From the sequence record OP617743.1: a stretch of 64,000 nucleotides of DNA; one strand, 5' to 3'. The notes beneath the pieces were generated by a model. It did not search any database, was not told the DNA's origin, and saw nothing but the letters and a program-made list of their open reading frames with translations. Shown here piece after piece: positions 5,435-36,604 of this stretch. Source of the stretch: Klebsiella phage KP13-26. Each line of letters opens with the position of its first letter. Positions within the stretch are counted from its first letter, which is position 1. The translations under genes and the position numbers were made by a program.

Positions 5435-5983
5435 ATGGGGCGCGAGCATGTTGTGCAATCTTGGGTAAAACATGATGAGGATGATTGGAGGGTGATCCCT
5501 CCTCACCTCCTAGACACTGCCAGCGGATACAGTGGCGAGCAAGTGGGGCAACGTGTAGCCCGTAACAACGGGAACACGGCGATTCGCGCCACGATTCCTG
5601 GTTGGCTGCCAAATGGCCGCGCCGACATTGCAGGGGCGGCAGATCCGGCAGATGAAGCAAAAGGTGATCCGCTACTGCTAGTAGATCCAGCGTTTAAGAC
5701 GCTTTTAGAGTACCCTGGCAAGGTGGCGGCGCTGGAGGCTGCGCATAGGGCGGGTAAATTGCCGGATAGCTTATATCGTAGCGCCTTGCGCGTCTTAGAC
5801 GTGAAAGCAGATAAGGCACAGCGCAAGATCGACAAGCTGGCGGGATCTGTCCTCCTGGAGGAAGAGAACGCGCCAGATGAGGAGCCGGAATTGATTCCGG
5901 TAGTCCTGGAGGAGGACGCGATCACGCCGTATCATCCTACACCGGAAGAGGCGGAGCAAGCCTTACGAAATTATTTTAAATAA
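5435..5983 (+). CDS. hypothetical protein (182 aa)
   Basis: ORF with GAGGGG RBS. The long antisense ORF at 5503-5925 is rejected. Confidence 0.6.
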   Translation: MGREHVVQSWVKHDEDDWRVIPPHLLDTASGYSGEQVGQRVARNNGNTAIRATIPGWLPNGRADIAGAADPADEAKGDPLLLVDPAFKTLLEYPGKVAALEAAHRAGKLPDSLYRSALRVLDVKADKAQRKIDKLAGSVLLEEENAPDEEPELIPVVLEEDAITPYHPTPEEAEQALRNYFK

Positions 5984-5987
5984 AGGA

Positions 5988-6016
5988 TTGACAAGCGCCC
6001 AAGAGGGGCGCATAAT
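5988..6016 (+). promoter_or_regulatory. sigma70 promoter TTGACA-N17-CATAAT with GCGCCC/GGGCGC spacer palindrome
   Basis: As the 4585 promoter. Confidence 0.6.
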
Positions 6017-6062
6017 TCATCACATAGGGCGGCAATGACGCCGACACCAAAGAGGATAGATT

Positions 6063-6179
6063 ATGTTAATCAAGAAAGAAAACTGTTTTTTCACTGGTAT
6101 TATCAATGCGCTGATCCTTTCGGTTCCATTGTGGGTAGTTATCGGTTTTACTTTGTGGTTAGTATCGAAAGCAGCGTAA
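6063..6179 (+). CDS. small membrane protein (38 aa)
   Basis: Hydrophobic sub-cutoff ORF with AGAGGA RBS. Confidence 0.4.
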   Translation: MLIKKENCFFTGIINALILSVPLWVVIGFTLWLVSKAA

Positions 6180-6187
6180 AAAAGTAG

Positions 6188-6216
6188 TTGACAGGCAGAT
6201 CCAAAGGGTCTAATAT
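6188..6216 (+). promoter_or_regulatory. sigma70 promoter TTGACA-N17-TAATAT
   Basis: Hexamers followed by a GGCGG...CCGCC leader hairpin. Confidence 0.55.
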
Positions 6217-6269
6217 TCATATCAAGGCGGGGAGATAGGCGAACCGCCAAAGCTGAAAAGGTTGGCATT

Positions 6270-6509
6270 ATGGCAAAGTCAAAAGGTTTTAACGGTCACA
6301 AAAACTGGAATCATTGGAATGTTGCATTATGGATCAATAATGATGAGGGATTATACCGCTATGCAATCGGGTTAATCAATGAGTGCAGTAGCAAGGATGA
6401 GGCCGCGGATCTGATGTGCTACCGTCTTGCGCAAGATGGCATCACCAAAACACCGGACGGCGCGCCGTACAGCAAAACCACGATCCGCGCTGCAATGGTT
6501 GGAATGTAG
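6270..6509 (+). CDS. hypothetical protein (79 aa)
   Basis: ORF. Confidence 0.55.
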   Translation: MAKSKGFNGHKNWNHWNVALWINNDEGLYRYAIGLINECSSKDEAADLMCYRLAQDGITKTPDGAPYSKTTIRAAMVGM

Positions 6510-6536
6510 AAAAATCGTCAATCTTATAAAATAAGG

Positions 6537-6565
6537 TTGACAACCTTCTAAAATAAAGTAAACTG
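6537..6565 (+). promoter_or_regulatory. sigma70 promoter TTGACA-N16-TAAACT
   Basis: Hexamers. Confidence 0.5.
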
Positions 6566-6573
6566 TTAATCAA

Positions 6574-6592
6574 GGCGGGAATGATTCCCGCC
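6574..6592 (+). repeat. Leader palindrome GGCGGGAATGATTCCCGCC (copy 3, variant)
   Basis: Inverted repeat. Confidence 0.65.
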
Positions 6593-6611
6593 ACAACAAA
6601 GAGAGAAAATT

Positions 6612-6773
6612 ATGATTGCCATGAATACTCGCGAAGCCGCTCGCAACGTAGCCCGTAAAGTTAACGCCGTTGCACCTGCTAAATTGAAAGCACCAGTGAA
6701 AGGCGAAAACGGCTGGATCTTCCCTGGCTTGTCTCATAACGATGGCAAAGGCACCTTGAGCCTGAAAAAATAA
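6612..6773 (+). CDS. hypothetical small protein (53 aa)
   Basis: Sub-cutoff ORF with AGAGAGAAAA RBS. Confidence 0.45.
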   Translation: MIAMNTREAARNVARKVNAVAPAKLKAPVKGENGWIFPGLSHNDGKGTLSLKK

Positions 6774-31854: not shown

Positions 31855-32784
31855 TCAATCTCCTTGAAATGGTTTAACGATGTGACTGTTAGCTTTGAAT
31901 CGCTCGATGTAATCAGTTTCACCCATGCTCTCATAGAATTTCATAACTACTCCGAAATTCTCCCAAGCGTACTCACGGAAGTAGCCTGACGTTATAGAGG
32001 TGCAAACCTTGCTCAAAGCCATAACAAAACTCTGACGAGCAGGAACTTCAAAATTAAAAGGGATCTGCGAACGTTCCAGTGCTAAGACACAGCTTTCTTC
32101 GTACACACCGAGAAGACGGATATGATTTTCTTGCTCAAAGAACTTTTCTTTGGAGGTCATCACTTCACTATCATCTTTCATATACGATTTGTATGCAGGA
32201 ACACCGAGAACTGCCACCGCTTCGTGAATGGTGTCATGATCGTACACATATGGCACTTCGTCGCCTTTGAAGAAGTCTTTGCTCTTCACATCCAAGTTTG
32301 GGTGAGAATAGTTATAGGTTTCTTTCTCACGCAGTTTGAATACTTCTTCTAACTCCGGCGGAATTTTAGCCCCAAGAGAGCGCATGAAATGAATGTCGTT
32401 CATGGTCTTGAAAAAGTGTGGACTGTTCTTCTTATAACGATGACTCATTTTCAGAAGATACAGAACATCTACCGGAGCCACGAAATCACCGTTGTTAAGG
32501 AACATACTCTGTGGGCTTGCCTTGCAATATTGGATCAGAATATCTGTGCTATCGCCCGGTTGAGCAATATCAAACTCGATATGTGTCCCATCTGTCAGTT
32601 TGACATGACCTTTGTTGCCAGTACGTTCCACAAGCTCAACGCCTTCTTCGTGGGTGTAACGCATGAATGCTATACTCCACTCCTTCTCTGTGCAAAGAAA
32701 GTCAAGATCAAGACAAGGGCGATAAAATTTCTTAGCCTCCCGTTCTAATTGAATCTCTAAACCACGGCTACCAACCATAATCAT
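31855..32784 (-). CDS. hypothetical protein (309 aa), first gene of the SIR2 operon
   Basis: GAGGAG RBS; stop adjacent to the 31854 start. Confidence 0.6.
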   Translation of the reverse strand: MIMVGSRGLEIQLEREAKKFYRPCLDLDFLCTEKEWSIAFMRYTHEEGVELVERTGNKGHVKLTDGTHIEFDIAQPGDSTDILIQYCKASPQSMFLNNGDFVAPVDVLYLLKMSHRYKKNSPHFFKTMNDIHFMRSLGAKIPPELEEVFKLREKETYNYSHPNLDVKSKDFFKGDEVPYVYDHDTIHEAVAVLGVPAYKSYMKDDSEVMTSKEKFFEQENHIRLLGVYEESCVLALERSQIPFNFEVPARQSFVMALSKVCTSITSGYFREYAWENFGVVMKFYESMGETDYIERFKANSHIVKPFQGD

Positions 32785-32854
32785 AATGTTTCTCCTCTCT
32801 TAAATGATAGATAGAGTTTACTTAGTATTATACCCAATGTCAATACTTAGACAA

Positions 32855-32877
32855 TAAAAAACCCGCCGAAGCGGGTT
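32855..32877 (-). terminator. Rho-independent terminator (minus strand)
   Basis: ACCCGC-TTCG-GCGGGT stem followed by TTTTTT. Confidence 0.6.
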
Positions 32878-32885
32878 CTTGTCAT

Positions 32886-33251
32886 TTAACACATTTCTGA
32901 AGAAGACACCCAGATACCTTGAGTTAGTTTACCTTCCTCATCGGCATATTCACTTGCTCGCCAGCCCAGGTAGTATTCTTCAATATCTGTACCTTTAGGA
33001 TAATATGTTTGTCCATTTTCCCCATATTCACCCCAGTAGGCTTGTACACCACCCTCGTCAGCCAAAGCGGCTATCTGATCTTTCACCGTCTCCACATATT
33101 CTTCTGCGGCTTTGGTCAGCTCTTGAATTTCTTTATCGTAATCACGTTTTTCCATTTTCTTCTCCTCTGCTTCTGCGATTAAGTTTAGCTCTGGCATCAG
33201 GAATGACCAGAGCAATTCATTAGCAACTGGACGTGACCCAAACTGATCCAT
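32886..33251 (-). CDS. WxSSSxxC-tail paralog F (121 aa)
   Basis: Ends GIWVSSSEMC. Start taken at ATG 33251; the listed 33290 start is TTG. Confidence 0.5.
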   Translation of the reverse strand: MDQFGSRPVANELLWSFLMPELNLIAEAEEKKMEKRDYDKEIQELTKAAEEYVETVKDQIAALADEGGVQAYWGEYGENGQTYYPKGTDIEEYYLGWRASEYADEEGKLTQGIWVSSSEMC

Positions 33252-33444
33252 CTGCGTACACTCCAAACGTTTCGGAATTTCCTTCGCCAAAACAGTCAGA
33301 AGACTGCCAATCTTCGAAGGTCATTTCTCCATCACAACTGATATCTAATCCGAAATCATTAGCTTCAGCCAGTGCGTGTAGTTCTTTAATGATTTTTTGT
33401 GCTTCAAGTGCCTTCTCTTGAATCTGATCAATGTTACGTGACAT
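33220..33444 (-). CDS. WxSSSxxC-tail paralog E (74 aa)
   Basis: Ends SVWVTSSC; ATG 33444 after AGAGGGT. Confidence 0.5.
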   Translation of the reverse strand: MSRNIDQIQEKALEAQKIIKELHALAEANDFGLDISCDGEMTFEDWQSSDCFGEGNSETFGVYADGSVWVTSSC

Positions 33445-33470
33445 TTTTGTACCCTCTATTGTTAAACTGC

Positions 33471-33499
33471 TTTCATTATAGGGCAAAACTTCATGCCCT
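33471..33499 (-). promoter_or_regulatory. Minus-strand sigma70 promoter TTGCAG-N17-TATAAT with GGGCA/TGCCC spacer palindrome
   Basis: Seen on the reverse complement. Confidence 0.45.
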
Positions 33500-33529
33500 G
33501 CAATAAAAATTCTTACATCATAACCCATA

Positions 33530-33724
33530 CTAGCAACCCAGAGAAGACGGGAACCAGTTATCACCAGTATACTCGTTTTCTTCTTCTGGATCAAAGTAAC
33601 CGCCCATGCCGTAAGCCGGATGGAAACCAAAACCTTCACCTGTTTCCAAGGATAGACGCTGTGCTTCTTCAAGAGCGGCTCTTGCCGCAGCTACTGCTTC
33701 GCTTACTGTTTTAAATTCACCCAT
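33530..33724 (-). CDS. WxSSSxxC-tail paralog D (64 aa)
   Basis: Ends DNWFPSSLGC; AGGAG RBS. Confidence 0.5.
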   Translation of the reverse strand: MGEFKTVSEAVAAARAALEEAQRLSLETGEGFGFHPAYGMGGYFDPEEENEYTGDNWFPSSLGC

Positions 33725-33739
33725 TTTTATCTCCTATTA

Positions 33740-34177
33740 TTACCAGCAAATACTGCTTGAAATCCAACCATGCTCATATCCAGCGTTAATGTGCGCTGAA
33801 AGAACTTGCTCTTTACCTACACTAAACTTTCCGTCTTCGTAGACGAAAGGTTCTTGGATACCAGATTCTTCCCAGAGATTCATCAGCACCTGTTTAGCAG
33901 TGTTGATTTCATCCAGGCGTTCTTTACTAACCATAACATTGTTGTAGCAATAATCATAGATTGCATCTTCCTGAATAGGTTCCATAGTCTCTTTGTTATA
34001 AGCCCATGTGGTCAGCATGTAATCATCTGTCCAATAAGGTTTAACTTCGAGAGGAATACCTTCCACATGAAGACGCTCATCTTCATCACCCAAGAACAAA
34101 ACGGTAAATTTATATTCGCCGCTACTTAGATCGTAGTAATCTTCACCTACACGAAGGTTGTCAATGTTATTATACAT
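33740..34177 (-). CDS. WxSSSxxC-tail paralog C (145 aa)
   Basis: Ends HGWISSSICW; AAGGGG RBS. Confidence 0.55.
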   Translation of the reverse strand: MYNNIDNLRVGEDYYDLSSGEYKFTVLFLGDEDERLHVEGIPLEVKPYWTDDYMLTTWAYNKETMEPIQEDAIYDYCYNNVMVSKERLDEINTAKQVLMNLWEESGIQEPFVYEDGKFSVGKEQVLSAHINAGYEHGWISSSICW

Positions 34178-34186
34178 TTTAGCCCC

Positions 34187-34606
34187 TTAACAAGTCATGC
34201 TACTAGAGCACCAAGCATGAGTACCTTGGATATAGGCAGAGCATTCGTCGTTACCAATATACACACGGTCATCTGATACAATAAGATCTCTTGTATTTAC
34301 ACCCAGAGACTTCAGCGTATCCACGATGTGTTGGCGTTCTTTATCTTTTCTTTTACGTTCTACAGGATCGATTAGACCGTGTTCATTAATAAATTCTTCA
34401 ATATAATTATCCCCTTCAATAAATTCGTCATTATAATAATCTTCGTAAAGAATTGCATCGTTATGTTCAGGGAGTTCATTCATTTCTTCTAGATATGCCT
34501 GTTTGTCTTCATCACTAGACCAAACACCATCAGCAAACACAATGCGAGCTACTTCATCACCCCAATTATCTTCGAATACTTGCCCAGCCACATATTTATT
34601 CTTCAC
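34187..34606 (-). CDS. WxSSSxxC-tail paralog B (139 aa)
   Basis: Ends THAWCSSSMTC; GTG start after GAGGAG. Confidence 0.55.
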   Translation of the reverse strand: MKNKYVAGQVFEDNWGDEVARIVFADGVWSSDEDKQAYLEEMNELPEHNDAILYEDYYNDEFIEGDNYIEEFINEHGLIDPVERKRKDKERQHIVDTLKSLGVNTRDLIVSDDRVYIGNDECSAYIQGTHAWCSSSMTC

Positions 34607-34880
34607 AAGGTATCTCCTCTTCTAATACTGCTTTAATTTTAAATGCTTTACTTCCTAAGTAACCGTCGCAACGGTCTTCATCCCCATAGTGCGAATAAAA
34701 GTCAAATTGTACAGTTGATTCACTCATTAGAAAAATCATATCTGTATGCTTTGTACCTTCGGGAACAATATTTTGGATATGCGGTAGAAGTTTACAATCA
34801 TAAAAACAAAGATCACCCGCACTACCTACTTCATCCCAACCTTCCCAAGACTCCACAAAAGAATGTTCTAAGCCTGCCAT
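34596..34880 (-). CDS. hypothetical acidic protein (94 aa)
   Basis: GAGGAGGG RBS. Confidence 0.55.
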   Translation of the reverse strand: MAGLEHSFVESWEGWDEVGSAGDLCFYDCKLLPHIQNIVPEGTKHTDMIFLMSESTVQFDFYSHYGDEDRCDGYLGSKAFKIKAVLEEEIPCEE

Positions 34881-34895
34881 ACAACCCTCCTCTAG

Positions 34896-35054
34896 TTAAC
34901 AATCATAAGAAGAACTACGCCAAGAGACATTTACTTCAACATTTTCCCCATCTTCTAAAGTAATGTTGAAATAATCATGCCCTAAACCCTCAGCACGAGC
35001 CATAACAATGGCCTCTTCTAGCTTTTGTGCAATCAGTTGCTCGATAGTTTTCAT
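34896..35054 (-). CDS. WxSSSxxC-tail paralog A (52 aa)
   Basis: Sub-cutoff ORF ending VSWRSSSYDC; GAGGAG RBS. Confidence 0.45.
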   Translation of the reverse strand: MKTIEQLIAQKLEEAIVMARAEGLGHDYFNITLEDGENVEVNVSWRSSSYDC

Positions 35055-35521: not shown

Positions 35522-36039
35522 TACCAGGTATCTCCCTTTGGCTTGATAACCTCAACGAAGAAAGAAGTTTCCATTTGCAGAGTATTGTTTAAAATAAACC
35601 CGTATAAAGGATACGCTGTAGTTCCTGCATATTGAATAGTATCAGCAGGAGCAAAATGCACAGCTACTTTTTGTGCTCCGTTATCTAACTCATGAACAAT
35701 TGCACGTAAGATCTCATTCACCATCACGGTAGTGAATGTTTGCAGTACAGTGTTTTCAAATGGAACATACCCTAAGAAATGAAGATTAATATCTTCAATC
35801 TCTTGTTGAGTCAAATCTTTATCCAGTGGATAAAATGGAATAGTATATGCAACGTTATCTTTTGTCAAGAAGACATCACAATTATGATAAAGGAAGTCTA
35901 CTTTGTCCATAACAAAACGAATACCTTGCCAAAGTGTATCTTGTACACGTTCTTGGATAGCCTCAGTTAAATCTACGAGATCGTGATGCATATGACTTAC
36001 ATTAGTACGTTCTCCTCCTCTAAGACATGCTTTAAGCAT
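35521..36039 (-). CDS. hypothetical protein (172 aa)
   Basis: GAGGAGG RBS. Confidence 0.6.
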   Translation of the reverse strand: MLKACLRGGERTNVSHMHHDLVDLTEAIQERVQDTLWQGIRFVMDKVDFLYHNCDVFLTKDNVAYTIPFYPLDKDLTQQEIEDINLHFLGYVPFENTVLQTFTTVMVNEILRAIVHELDNGAQKVAVHFAPADTIQYAGTTAYPLYGFILNNTLQMETSFFVEVIKPKGDTW

Positions 36040-36604
36040 TAATTGCCTCCTCTAAAATAGGTTTAATGAAATCAAATATTTCCCGTTTACTTTTACCTCG
36101 TATGTTAAAGCAAGGAATATTAAACTGTTTTGCTAACATCCATGCAGTTCTAGTCCCTCCTTTTGCATCCCCATTTTTATCTACATCTGAACAGGCCAAT
36201 AAAAATAAAGAGGGAACAGGATTTTCCAAATCTCTTCCTAGCACCTGATGAACATTGCGTTGATGCAATTTCTTACCCCCTTGTGATAACCTATCCCAAG
36301 CAGGATGTATTTCTTTTGCATATTTAACGCTTATAGCGTAGTTCATTGTATCAGGGCTGTCAAGACAAATTTTCTCCCCTGCTATTTCATTACCTTCAAA
36401 TTTAGGCCACGGAATGTAAATTTCTTTGTTATCAGGAAGATTAGACAAGGATACACCATACTCGAATGCAGAATCGGAGCCTCCTGCCTTACCGGATCTT
36501 AACTTAAGCCATTGGGCTAACCATTTAGCGACGGCAACCATTATATCCCATTCTTCATCTGTGATATCACGACTTCCTACACCAGTGTAAAATAATCCCT
36601 CCAT
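36032..36604 (-). CDS. DprA/SLOG-like Rossmann-fold protein
   Basis: GVGSR...SGKAGGSD...GGTRTA pattern resembling the DprA/Smf fold; GAGGTGA RBS. Confidence 0.35.
   Translation of the reverse strand: MEGLFYTGVGSRDITDEEWDIMVAVAKWLAQWLKLRSGKAGGSDSAFEYGVSLSNLPDNKEIYIPWPKFEGNEIAGEKICLDSPDTMNYAISVKYAKEIHPAWDRLSQGGKKLHQRNVHQVLGRDLENPVPSLFLLACSDVDKNGDAKGGTRTAWMLAKQFNIPCFNIRGKSKREIFDFIKPILEEAINA

Follow-up and report, generated by a model that had tools for sequence, protein, structure and literature searches.

What do six small proteins do that are encoded side by side in a Klebsiella phage and share a C-terminal Trp-Ser-Ser-Cys tail, and do they act alone or with another gene product? In the 64,000-nt DNA of Klebsiella phage KP13-26 (OP617743.1; the window, to whose whole length all coordinates refer), the minus strand carries seven closely packed genes at 32886-35054, six of which encode a Trp-x-Ser/Pro/Thr-Ser-Ser..Cys C-terminus. 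A previous sequence-only reading had described these six as an unrecognized family of paralogs, and had suggested that they are diversifying anti-defence or DNA-mimic proteins, or that the tail is a processing, modification or secretion tag. It missed the decisive context, which is the gene downstream: the array lies directly upstream, on the same strand, of a gene (31855-32784, minus strand, 309 aa; DUF7277 + DUF7275, phrog_2141) for a pol-beta-type nucleotidyltransferase (NTase). We found that the small-protein family and the NTase gene are linked both ways across unrelated phage lineages while their other neighbors change, and that they probably constitute one phage-specific functional module, made up of an enzyme and one to six small Cys-tailed proteins.

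Linkage between the small-protein genes and the NTase gene

In a forward test on 80 IMG/VR loci picked via the NTase protein, where many of the sampled contigs were related T4-like phages, at least one same-strand tail gene was present in 78/80 loci, at a copy number of 1-6. Frames carrying the tail numbered 239 among 5659 on the NTase strand and 0 among 7822 on the opposite strand, which places the pattern far beyond chance. The tail genes were found upstream of the NTase gene in 229 cases and downstream in 10, and the nearest one ended a median of 355 nt before the NTase gene, with a distance of 30 nt or less in 9 loci. Upon clustering the same-strand open reading frames (ORFs) of the 80 loci, we recovered the small proteins in 74 of them, while any other non-NTase family reached at most 26. 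The reverse test started from 23 loci picked solely by a small protein of the YGMGG type (described below), about two thirds of which were new contigs, and in all 23 the NTase gene was located 0.2-1.6 kb downstream, at 39-69% identity. As the small-protein genes are sited near-constantly just upstream of a conserved NTase gene, it is probable that the small proteins and the NTase work together.

The arrangement extends well beyond the relatives of KP13-26. It occurs in the Pseudomonas Otagovirus M5.1, the 349-kb Salmonella phage 7t3, Shewanella Thanatos-2 and Acinetobacter Kimel, and the NTase gene also follows small-protein arrays in Straboviridae and in Stephanstirmvirinae, two groups between which the NTase is 45-70% identical and far more conserved than the small proteins. 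The NTase was present in 733 phage records. Among 185,579 bacterial and archaeal species genomes, the NTase was found on just four phage-sized contigs of metagenome-assembled genomes, with tail genes upstream in 4/4, and a chromosomal toxin-antitoxin origin is hence unsupported. No small proteins accompanied the more distant NTase homologs of ValKK3 (33% identity), DSS3_VP1 (29%) and Gordonia Engineer (30%), and the first 100 kb of T4 contained neither the NTase nor a significant member of the small family.

A small-protein family marked by its C-terminal motif

All six tail genes are on the minus strand, where the sequence-only reading had placed them, and each has its own ribosome-binding site (RBS) of the AGGAG/GAGG type 5-9 nt 5' of the start. 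They are w1 (34896-35054; 52 aa, ..WRSSSYDC), a minimal member with a helix, short strands and then the tail; w3 (34187-34606; 139 aa, GTG start, ..WCSSSMTC); w4 (33740-34177; 145 aa, ..WISSSICW, its Cys being penultimate); w5 (33530-33724; 64 aa, with a helix, an AYGMGGYF loop and ..WFPSSLGC); w6 (33220-33444; 74 aa, ..WVTSSC, with a second, internal motif WQSSDC); and w7 (32886-33155; 89 aa, with a long helix, a YGxGxTYYP loop and ..WVSSSEMC). For w6 and w7 we took the ATG with an RBS in front as the start, rather than the longer TTG-started ORF, and the start position is the same in more distant orthologs. The pattern that we used for membership, a C-terminal W-x-[SAPT]-S-[SN]-x(0-3)-C, was present in all six genes, allowing for the penultimate Cys of w4, and, among the 658 stop-to-stop window frames with a length of 40 aa or more, a search for the tail matched these six and no others. 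The proteins have a pI of 4.05-4.35 and a net charge of -6 to -19, so the acidity noted before holds, while the Tyr richness reported with it applies to w7 (10%) and w4 (8%) only. Most members, e.g., w1, w5 and w7, possess no Cys besides that of the tail and can thus form neither an intramolecular disulfide nor a metal site with several Cys.

Homology among the six is graded. The C-terminal 70-80 positions of PHROG 899, a cluster of "unknown function", matched w5, w6 and w7 at E 2.2e-6 to 6.1e-10 (w5, 6.7e-7; w6, 2.2e-6) and did not match w1, w3 or w4. Against a family hidden Markov model (HMM), whose seed alignment already contained the window's own sequences, the same three scored E 1.3e-7 to 7.9e-18 (w5, 1.5e-14; w6, 1.3e-7), while w4 (E 0.0017) and w1 (E 0.0085) gave weak matches in a 2952-sequence search and w3 aligned in the tail alone. 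By sequence comparison, w5, w6 and w7 are thus clearly homologous. An hhalign comparison indicates kinship between w3 and w4 (E 3.4e-5, probability 72%); against an independent core-family profile (A5), w3 aligned in the tail only and w4 in the helix-G segment only (probability 4%). Higher values for w3 and w4 against another profile, A3 (probability 95-97%), were set aside as circular, because A3 holds w3/w4-type sequences. The assignment of w1, w3 and w4 to the family is accordingly based on the tail together with element order and location in the genome, and, if these three were not homologous to the others, the common tail would stand out even more clearly as a functional element.

In agreement with the view that the family is unrecognized, scans of the six proteins against Pfam, NCBIfam and PADLOC gave nothing above noise, and membership of three of them in PHROG 899 was the sole database assignment. 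Profile matches of the family in the PDB were confined to designed helical bundles, which we judged spurious. The family is therefore already clustered in PHROGs, yet undescribed.

Its extent is considerable. A tblastn search with w7 found relatives in 346 phage records, among them phi92-like phages and the T4-like phages of Escherichia, Aeromonas, Enterobacter, Klebsiella, Yersinia, Edwardsiella and Pectobacterium. The relatives again lie in tandem, with 1-6 copies per array, in phages of the T4-like, phi92-like, Otagovirus and jumbo groups (five genes in JS10; three each in p000v, ESCO5 and phiWec179). The sequence-only reading had allowed that the tail might be a chance pattern without conservation in orthologs; it is conserved. 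An exhaustive search of 1.84 billion representative proteins with the family HMM (E <= 1e-3) matched 223 clusters, and among 148 newly listed matches the tail was present in 143 and the Cys end in 142. True matches were 73-136 aa long with the domain at the C-terminus, carried "hypothetical" as their source name throughout, and came from contigs of large-phage size. One match was rejected as a false positive: P0189, a 1360-aa eukaryote-like lipocalin-repeat protein that reached E 5e-12 through five repeats, an example of how a short, compositionally biased profile can mislead. Word-indexed protein searches with alignments yielded 51 and 24 matches, mainly close orthologs.

An alignment of 260 diverse members revealed an N-terminal amphipathic helix ending in ..[IL]A[DE]ExG and followed by a strand [VLI]xF, a Y-G-x-G-G-x-Y-x-P loop in the commonest subfamily, and, in the C-terminal part, an acidic stretch leading into G-G-W-x-S-S-S-x-x-C. 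The Trp, the Ser at W+3 and the terminal Cys are conserved at ~100%, and the Ser at W+4 at 89%. Counted from the Trp, the tail measures 8 residues in 153 sequences and 6 residues in 46, and a length of 9 also occurs. The YGMGG type, to which w5 belongs, is the most widespread subfamily (60/78 loci), and the double-motif type of w6 was found in 27/78. Members of the latter carry an internal W-x-S-S-x-C followed by [YF]GE in addition to a terminal W-x-x-S-S-C (further examples at L003 4940-5164, L008 4743-4961 and L011 3701-3946); this internal copy indicates that the motif can be retained without its Cys ending the protein. Two sub-threshold sequences in T4 could be decayed relatives of the family or chance similarities, namely gene 49.3 (L096 47823-48131; E 0.4), with ..AKAEGIDFVV..PYGEN.. 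and ending ..EVSSWWCEK, and tk.1 (L004 10346-10534; E 0.011), with ..LSFEISSEYGDAETYY.. and without the tail.

Comparison of orthologs also bears on the coding status of the genes and on how they evolve. The window phage is related to phi92 and Phapecoctavirus, the locus is syntenic with that of E. coli Phapecoctavirus (Stephanstirmvirinae) phages, and the window is 96.5% identical to KP2025, 92.6% to FKP3 and 85.8% to phi1_175008. In two diverged relatives, 152/239 and 253/426 nucleotide differences fell on third codon positions, an excess that supports the six ORFs as real coding genes. Codon changes numbered 15 synonymous vs 3 nonsynonymous in w1 (compared with L016) and 20 vs 3 in w7. Metagenome orthologs retain the tail of their own paralog (WISSSICW, WCSSSM[ST]C, WFPSSL[GS]C and W[IV]SSS[ES]MC), as do an ortholog of w1 (P0048) and its relatives in L018 and L019 (W.SSSY[DN]C). 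The most conserved part of the w3 and w4 orthologs is formed by the C-terminal ~45 residues: invariant residues gather in residues 94-139 of w3 (13 orthologs) and 109-145 of w4 (16 orthologs), while the N-terminal domain varies. Judged from these comparisons, the C-terminal domain is under purifying selection, and the label of hypervariable and diversifying does not fit this part of the proteins. In KP2025 (L001, PP919962.1), the closest relative, an intact w6 ortholog ORF at ~6476-6700 was left unannotated, and the w7 ortholog is annotated as 121 aa from an upstream ATG, vs 89 aa here.

Predicted fold of the small proteins

Structure prediction, which the sequence-only reading had proposed as a check, gave a confident model for w7. 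The AlphaFold2 (AF2) model, built on a 26-sequence alignment (pLDDT 91.3, pTM 0.76), consists of a helix at residues 6-35, strands at 39-41 and 49-52, a helix at 64-70 and a final strand at 81-84 (I-W-V-S), followed by a turn at 85-87 and then Met-Cys. The Trp of the motif (W82) sits within the strand of a confidently folded domain, so the motif is predicted not to be simply a free tail, with the Ser-Ser..Cys end following the last strand. In our reading, the members of the family would be small, acidic, folded proteins that begin with an amphipathic helix, continue in a small sheet and end in W-x-S-S-(S)-x-x-Cys.

The nucleotidyltransferase and its likely substrate

The NTase alignment retains the pol-beta catalytic set (G5-S6, D26-x-D28 and E70), along with a conserved K112/H115/R116/K119 helix and D182-H183-D184..H187. 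The AF2 model of the protein is confident (pLDDT 89, pTM 0.80) except for a loop at 157-180, and its nearest folds are MenT1, MenT3 and MenT4, from the MenT/AbiEii enzymes, which attach nucleotides at the 3' ends of tRNA. From its conserved residues the protein is apparently an active pol-beta nucleotidyltransferase. The loop, the sole low-confidence part of the model, contains the invariant residues H161, P162, L164, F171, F172 and Y179, and two invariant Cys, C232 and C261, are located in the helical domain; as far as the model goes, the loop could become ordered on binding of a partner or substrate, and the two Cys are also candidate contacts. A Pfam scan with E values up to 0.1 returned DUF7275 and DUF7277 only and no DUF1814, and neither PADLOC nor sequence profiles of the PDB provided a match. 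Identification as RlaP, which is defined as PF10127 (PMC12776372), was rejected, as the Pfam scan gave no PF10127 match. Searches of the literature turned up no paper dealing with DUF7275/DUF7277, the named ORFs, the small-protein family or a module of this kind.

The neighbors of its relatives hint at a substrate. Relatives of the NTase gene lie beside RNA-repair genes, namely RnlA and Pnk in 7t3 (L010 1-2005) and a phosphoesterase and Rnl2 in DSS3_VP1 (L095 1265-2810), or beside tRNA genes, in JS10, PSTCR6, Thanatos-2 and Engineer. As the relatives adjoin RNA ligase, Pnk, phosphoesterase or tRNA genes, we infer that the NTase acts on RNA 3' ends, most likely those of tRNA. Neighbors of the tRNA or RNA-repair kind are also located at L003 782-1014, L007 256-1643, L011 4956-5103 and L013 5853-8014. 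No tRNA gene was found in the window.

Transcription signals and other genes of the region

The array is closed by a strong intrinsic terminator (32857-32880, minus strand) with a 10-bp stem containing 5 GC pairs, followed by a T-run, and a promoter-like site, TTGTCT-16-TATAAT (32827-32854, minus strand; 10/12 consensus matches), lies ahead of the NTase gene. These two elements at 32827-32880 split the array from the NTase gene, so that the two do not form a simple operon in this phage. Within the array, the 85-nt gap between w5 and w6 contains a further promoter-like element read from the sequence, TTGCAG-17-TATAAT (33475-33503, minus strand), which had been described as an internal sigma70 promoter with a spacer palindrome. 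The perfect -10 and the palindrome (GGGCA..TGCCC) bear out that description; the -35 is weak, with 3/6 matches, for which reason the element fell below the threshold of a consensus promoter scan, and we regard it as a candidate promoter.

The gene interrupting the array (34596-34880, minus strand, 94 aa) is, as had been proposed, not a member: it lacks the tail, ends in ..EEIPCEE and belongs to a separate family, phrog_4991 (E 7.8e-17). It encodes a conserved small acidic phage protein (pI 4.35) with four Cys, and the start of w3 overlaps its 3' end by 11 nt. Accessory genes also occur in the region of the array, including a Ser/Thr phosphatase, Sir2, methyltransferases and a DprA/SLOG-like gene (36032-36604, minus strand; phrog_768, named YspA in the KP2025 annotation). 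In Phapecoctavirus, a DprA/SLOG-like gene and a Ser/Thr phosphatase are found near the module; in Thanatos-2 the NTase is followed by a DprA-like gene, and jumbo phage 7t3 has a Ser/Thr phosphatase close to the NTase. Genes noted in this context are located at L010 3438-4007 (a 190-aa gene of 7t3) and 5907-6650 and at L011 5172-5801. The DprA/SLOG and phosphatase genes may represent a looser, extended neighborhood, each family being present in at most 14/80 loci.

Possible roles of the small proteins

How, then, might the small proteins and the enzyme work together? The answer that we favor, tentatively and with a little less than even confidence, is that the small proteins are non-covalent partners of the NTase, acting as antitoxin-like gates or interchangeable specificity subunits that are recognized via their C-terminal element. 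They would bind the NTase and gate or direct nucleotidyl transfer; the C-terminal motif, with its Trp anchoring the last strand and its Ser-Ser..Cys end exposed, would be the common element read by the enzyme; the variable bodies and N-terminal domains would give each paralog its own target or timing; and the NTase would add nucleotides at RNA 3' ends. A precedent is provided by the inhibition of MenT toxins by diverse small partners, e.g., the 68-aa MenA1, a direct binder (PMC10435456). Several points weigh on the other side: in this phage the array and the NTase gene are set apart by a terminator and a promoter, the NTase is itself acidic, its distant homologs manage without small proteins, and arrays are atypical of antitoxins. 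The separate transcription signals and the distant homologs without small proteins would also fit a rather unlikely alternative, in which each small protein acts by itself in host takeover or anti-defence, as an acidic nucleic-acid mimic or by inhibiting host factors, and is merely carried along with the NTase in an early-gene RNA-repair and anti-defence island, the tail being a fold-stabilizing element and its reactive Cys being aimed at host targets. That the proteins are strongly acidic, small, duplicated and variable in copy number speaks for this alternative, as do the accessory genes nearby; their near-constant siting beside one enzyme gene argues for joint action instead. Beyond the acidity, which the non-member neighbor in the array has as well, we saw no evidence for a DNA-mimic or anti-defence role.

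Proteins are known targets of pol-beta-fold NTases such as GlnE, GlnD and the MNT of HEPN/MNT, and the small proteins may likewise be covalent substrates of the NTase, with one enzyme serving many precursors and the motif forming a modification cassette on varied scaffolds. A Ser of the tail would be nucleotidylylated, or an activated Ser would be attacked by the terminal Cys to yield a thioether-type C-terminal ring. The invariant residues are indeed the reactive ones, namely the Ser at W+3 and W+4 and a single end Cys, most members (w1, w5 and w7 among them) are without further Cys, the two-way linkage (78/80 and 23/23) ties them to one enzyme, and several diverged paralogs beside one conserved enzyme resemble multi-precursor clusters for ribosomally synthesized and post-translationally modified peptides (RiPPs). 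We nevertheless consider a substrate role quite unlikely: the enzymes that come closest to the NTase in structure use tRNA or small molecules, not proteins, as substrates, no lanthipeptide-type or other RiPP enzyme was detected in the four flanking proteins scanned, the Ser-to-Cys spacing varies (tails of 6, 8 and 9 residues), and the proteins are confidently folded domains, not leader-core peptides. Its fullest version, a phage-specific modification system in which a MenT-like NTase modifies a portable W-x-S-S-S-x-x-C cassette on interchangeable small folded proteins, strikes us as improbable; if true, it would bring a RiPP-like one-enzyme/many-substrate logic to folded proteins, switching them on or protecting them during infection. 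Finally, the tail could be a structural signature only, with the Trp in the core and a Ser-Ser turn, and the adjacency to the NTase could be inherited synteny without function. The location of W82 in strand 81-84 of a compact domain (pLDDT 91) and the fact that many sampled contigs are related T4-like phages are consistent with this view, which is very unlikely all the same, as folding alone hardly accounts for an invariant last-residue Cys in a cytoplasmic protein and the pairing persists across lineages with unrelated flanks at an NTase identity of 40-53%. With the small proteins as partners of the enzyme, the earlier notion of the tail as a shared handle survives in part: a handle fits the strict linkage to one enzyme gene, while a secretion tag is unlikely, because the proteins have no signal peptide and are acidic and soluble.

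Implications and comparison with known systems

Hundreds of sequenced phages, whose hosts include Enterobacteria, Aeromonas, Acinetobacter and Pseudomonas, possess the module, among them relatives of model or therapeutic phages (RB69, JS10, phAPEC8 and other Phapecoctavirus, and Klebsiella phages), and every component of it is still annotated as "hypothetical". The two-way linkage turns about seven such genes per genome into one testable unit, for which the invariant C-terminal Cys motif offers a precise experimental handle through point mutants and mass shifts. A MenT-like enzyme in virulent phages would imply an undescribed handling or repair of RNA 3' ends. Regulation of the enzyme by the small proteins, or their modification by it, would amount to an enzyme-plus-adaptor system of a type new in phages; small proteins that act on their own would constitute a large new family of host-takeover proteins.

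Among known systems, DNA mimics are a poor match, as we found neither kinship to the Ocr, ArdA or Arn type nor a DNA-imitating charge pattern. Multi-precursor RiPP systems such as prochlorosin (ProcA/ProcM) share the tandem diverged small genes, the common Ser/Cys-rich segment and the single conserved enzyme; the phage segment, however, is C-terminal within a folded domain, and the products are acidic proteins of 50-145 aa rather than peptides. Of the features that define RiPP precursors, just the Ser/Cys content fits, with no known modifying enzyme among the four flanking proteins scanned and a folded domain in the w7 model in place of a leader-core architecture. In the HEPN/MNT type VII toxin-antitoxin systems and in GlnD/GlnE, an NTase fold covalently modifies an adjacently encoded partner protein, which constitutes a precedent; unlike these, the phage module has no HEPN domain and shows no sequence or close fold match to them, and the known acceptors there are Tyr, not Ser or Cys. 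PHROG 899, a phage ortholog cluster, already holds the w5-w7 type without a description, function or literature. RlaP and CCA-adding enzymes, phage NTases of RNA-repair clusters, resemble the NTase in being pol-beta NTases of large phages encoded near RNA ligase, Pnk, phosphoesterase or tRNA genes (PMC7824862). In comparison with MenAT and AbiE, the NTase does not fit the sequence definition of DUF1814 (AbiEii), and the module is confined to phages, comes in arrays and bears an invariant C-terminal Cys motif. Common to both are the pol-beta core of the NTase (GS, DxD and a third acidic residue, in line with the general hG[GS], [DE]x[DE] and third acidic residue of the fold), best folds that are MenT-like (MenT1, MenT3/TglT and MenT4), and helix-first small proteins (52-145 aa) whose genes directly precede that of the NTase on its strand, the usual position for antitoxin genes. 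By analogy, the logic of the module thus resembles that of modules combining an NTase with a small partner, such as MenAT.

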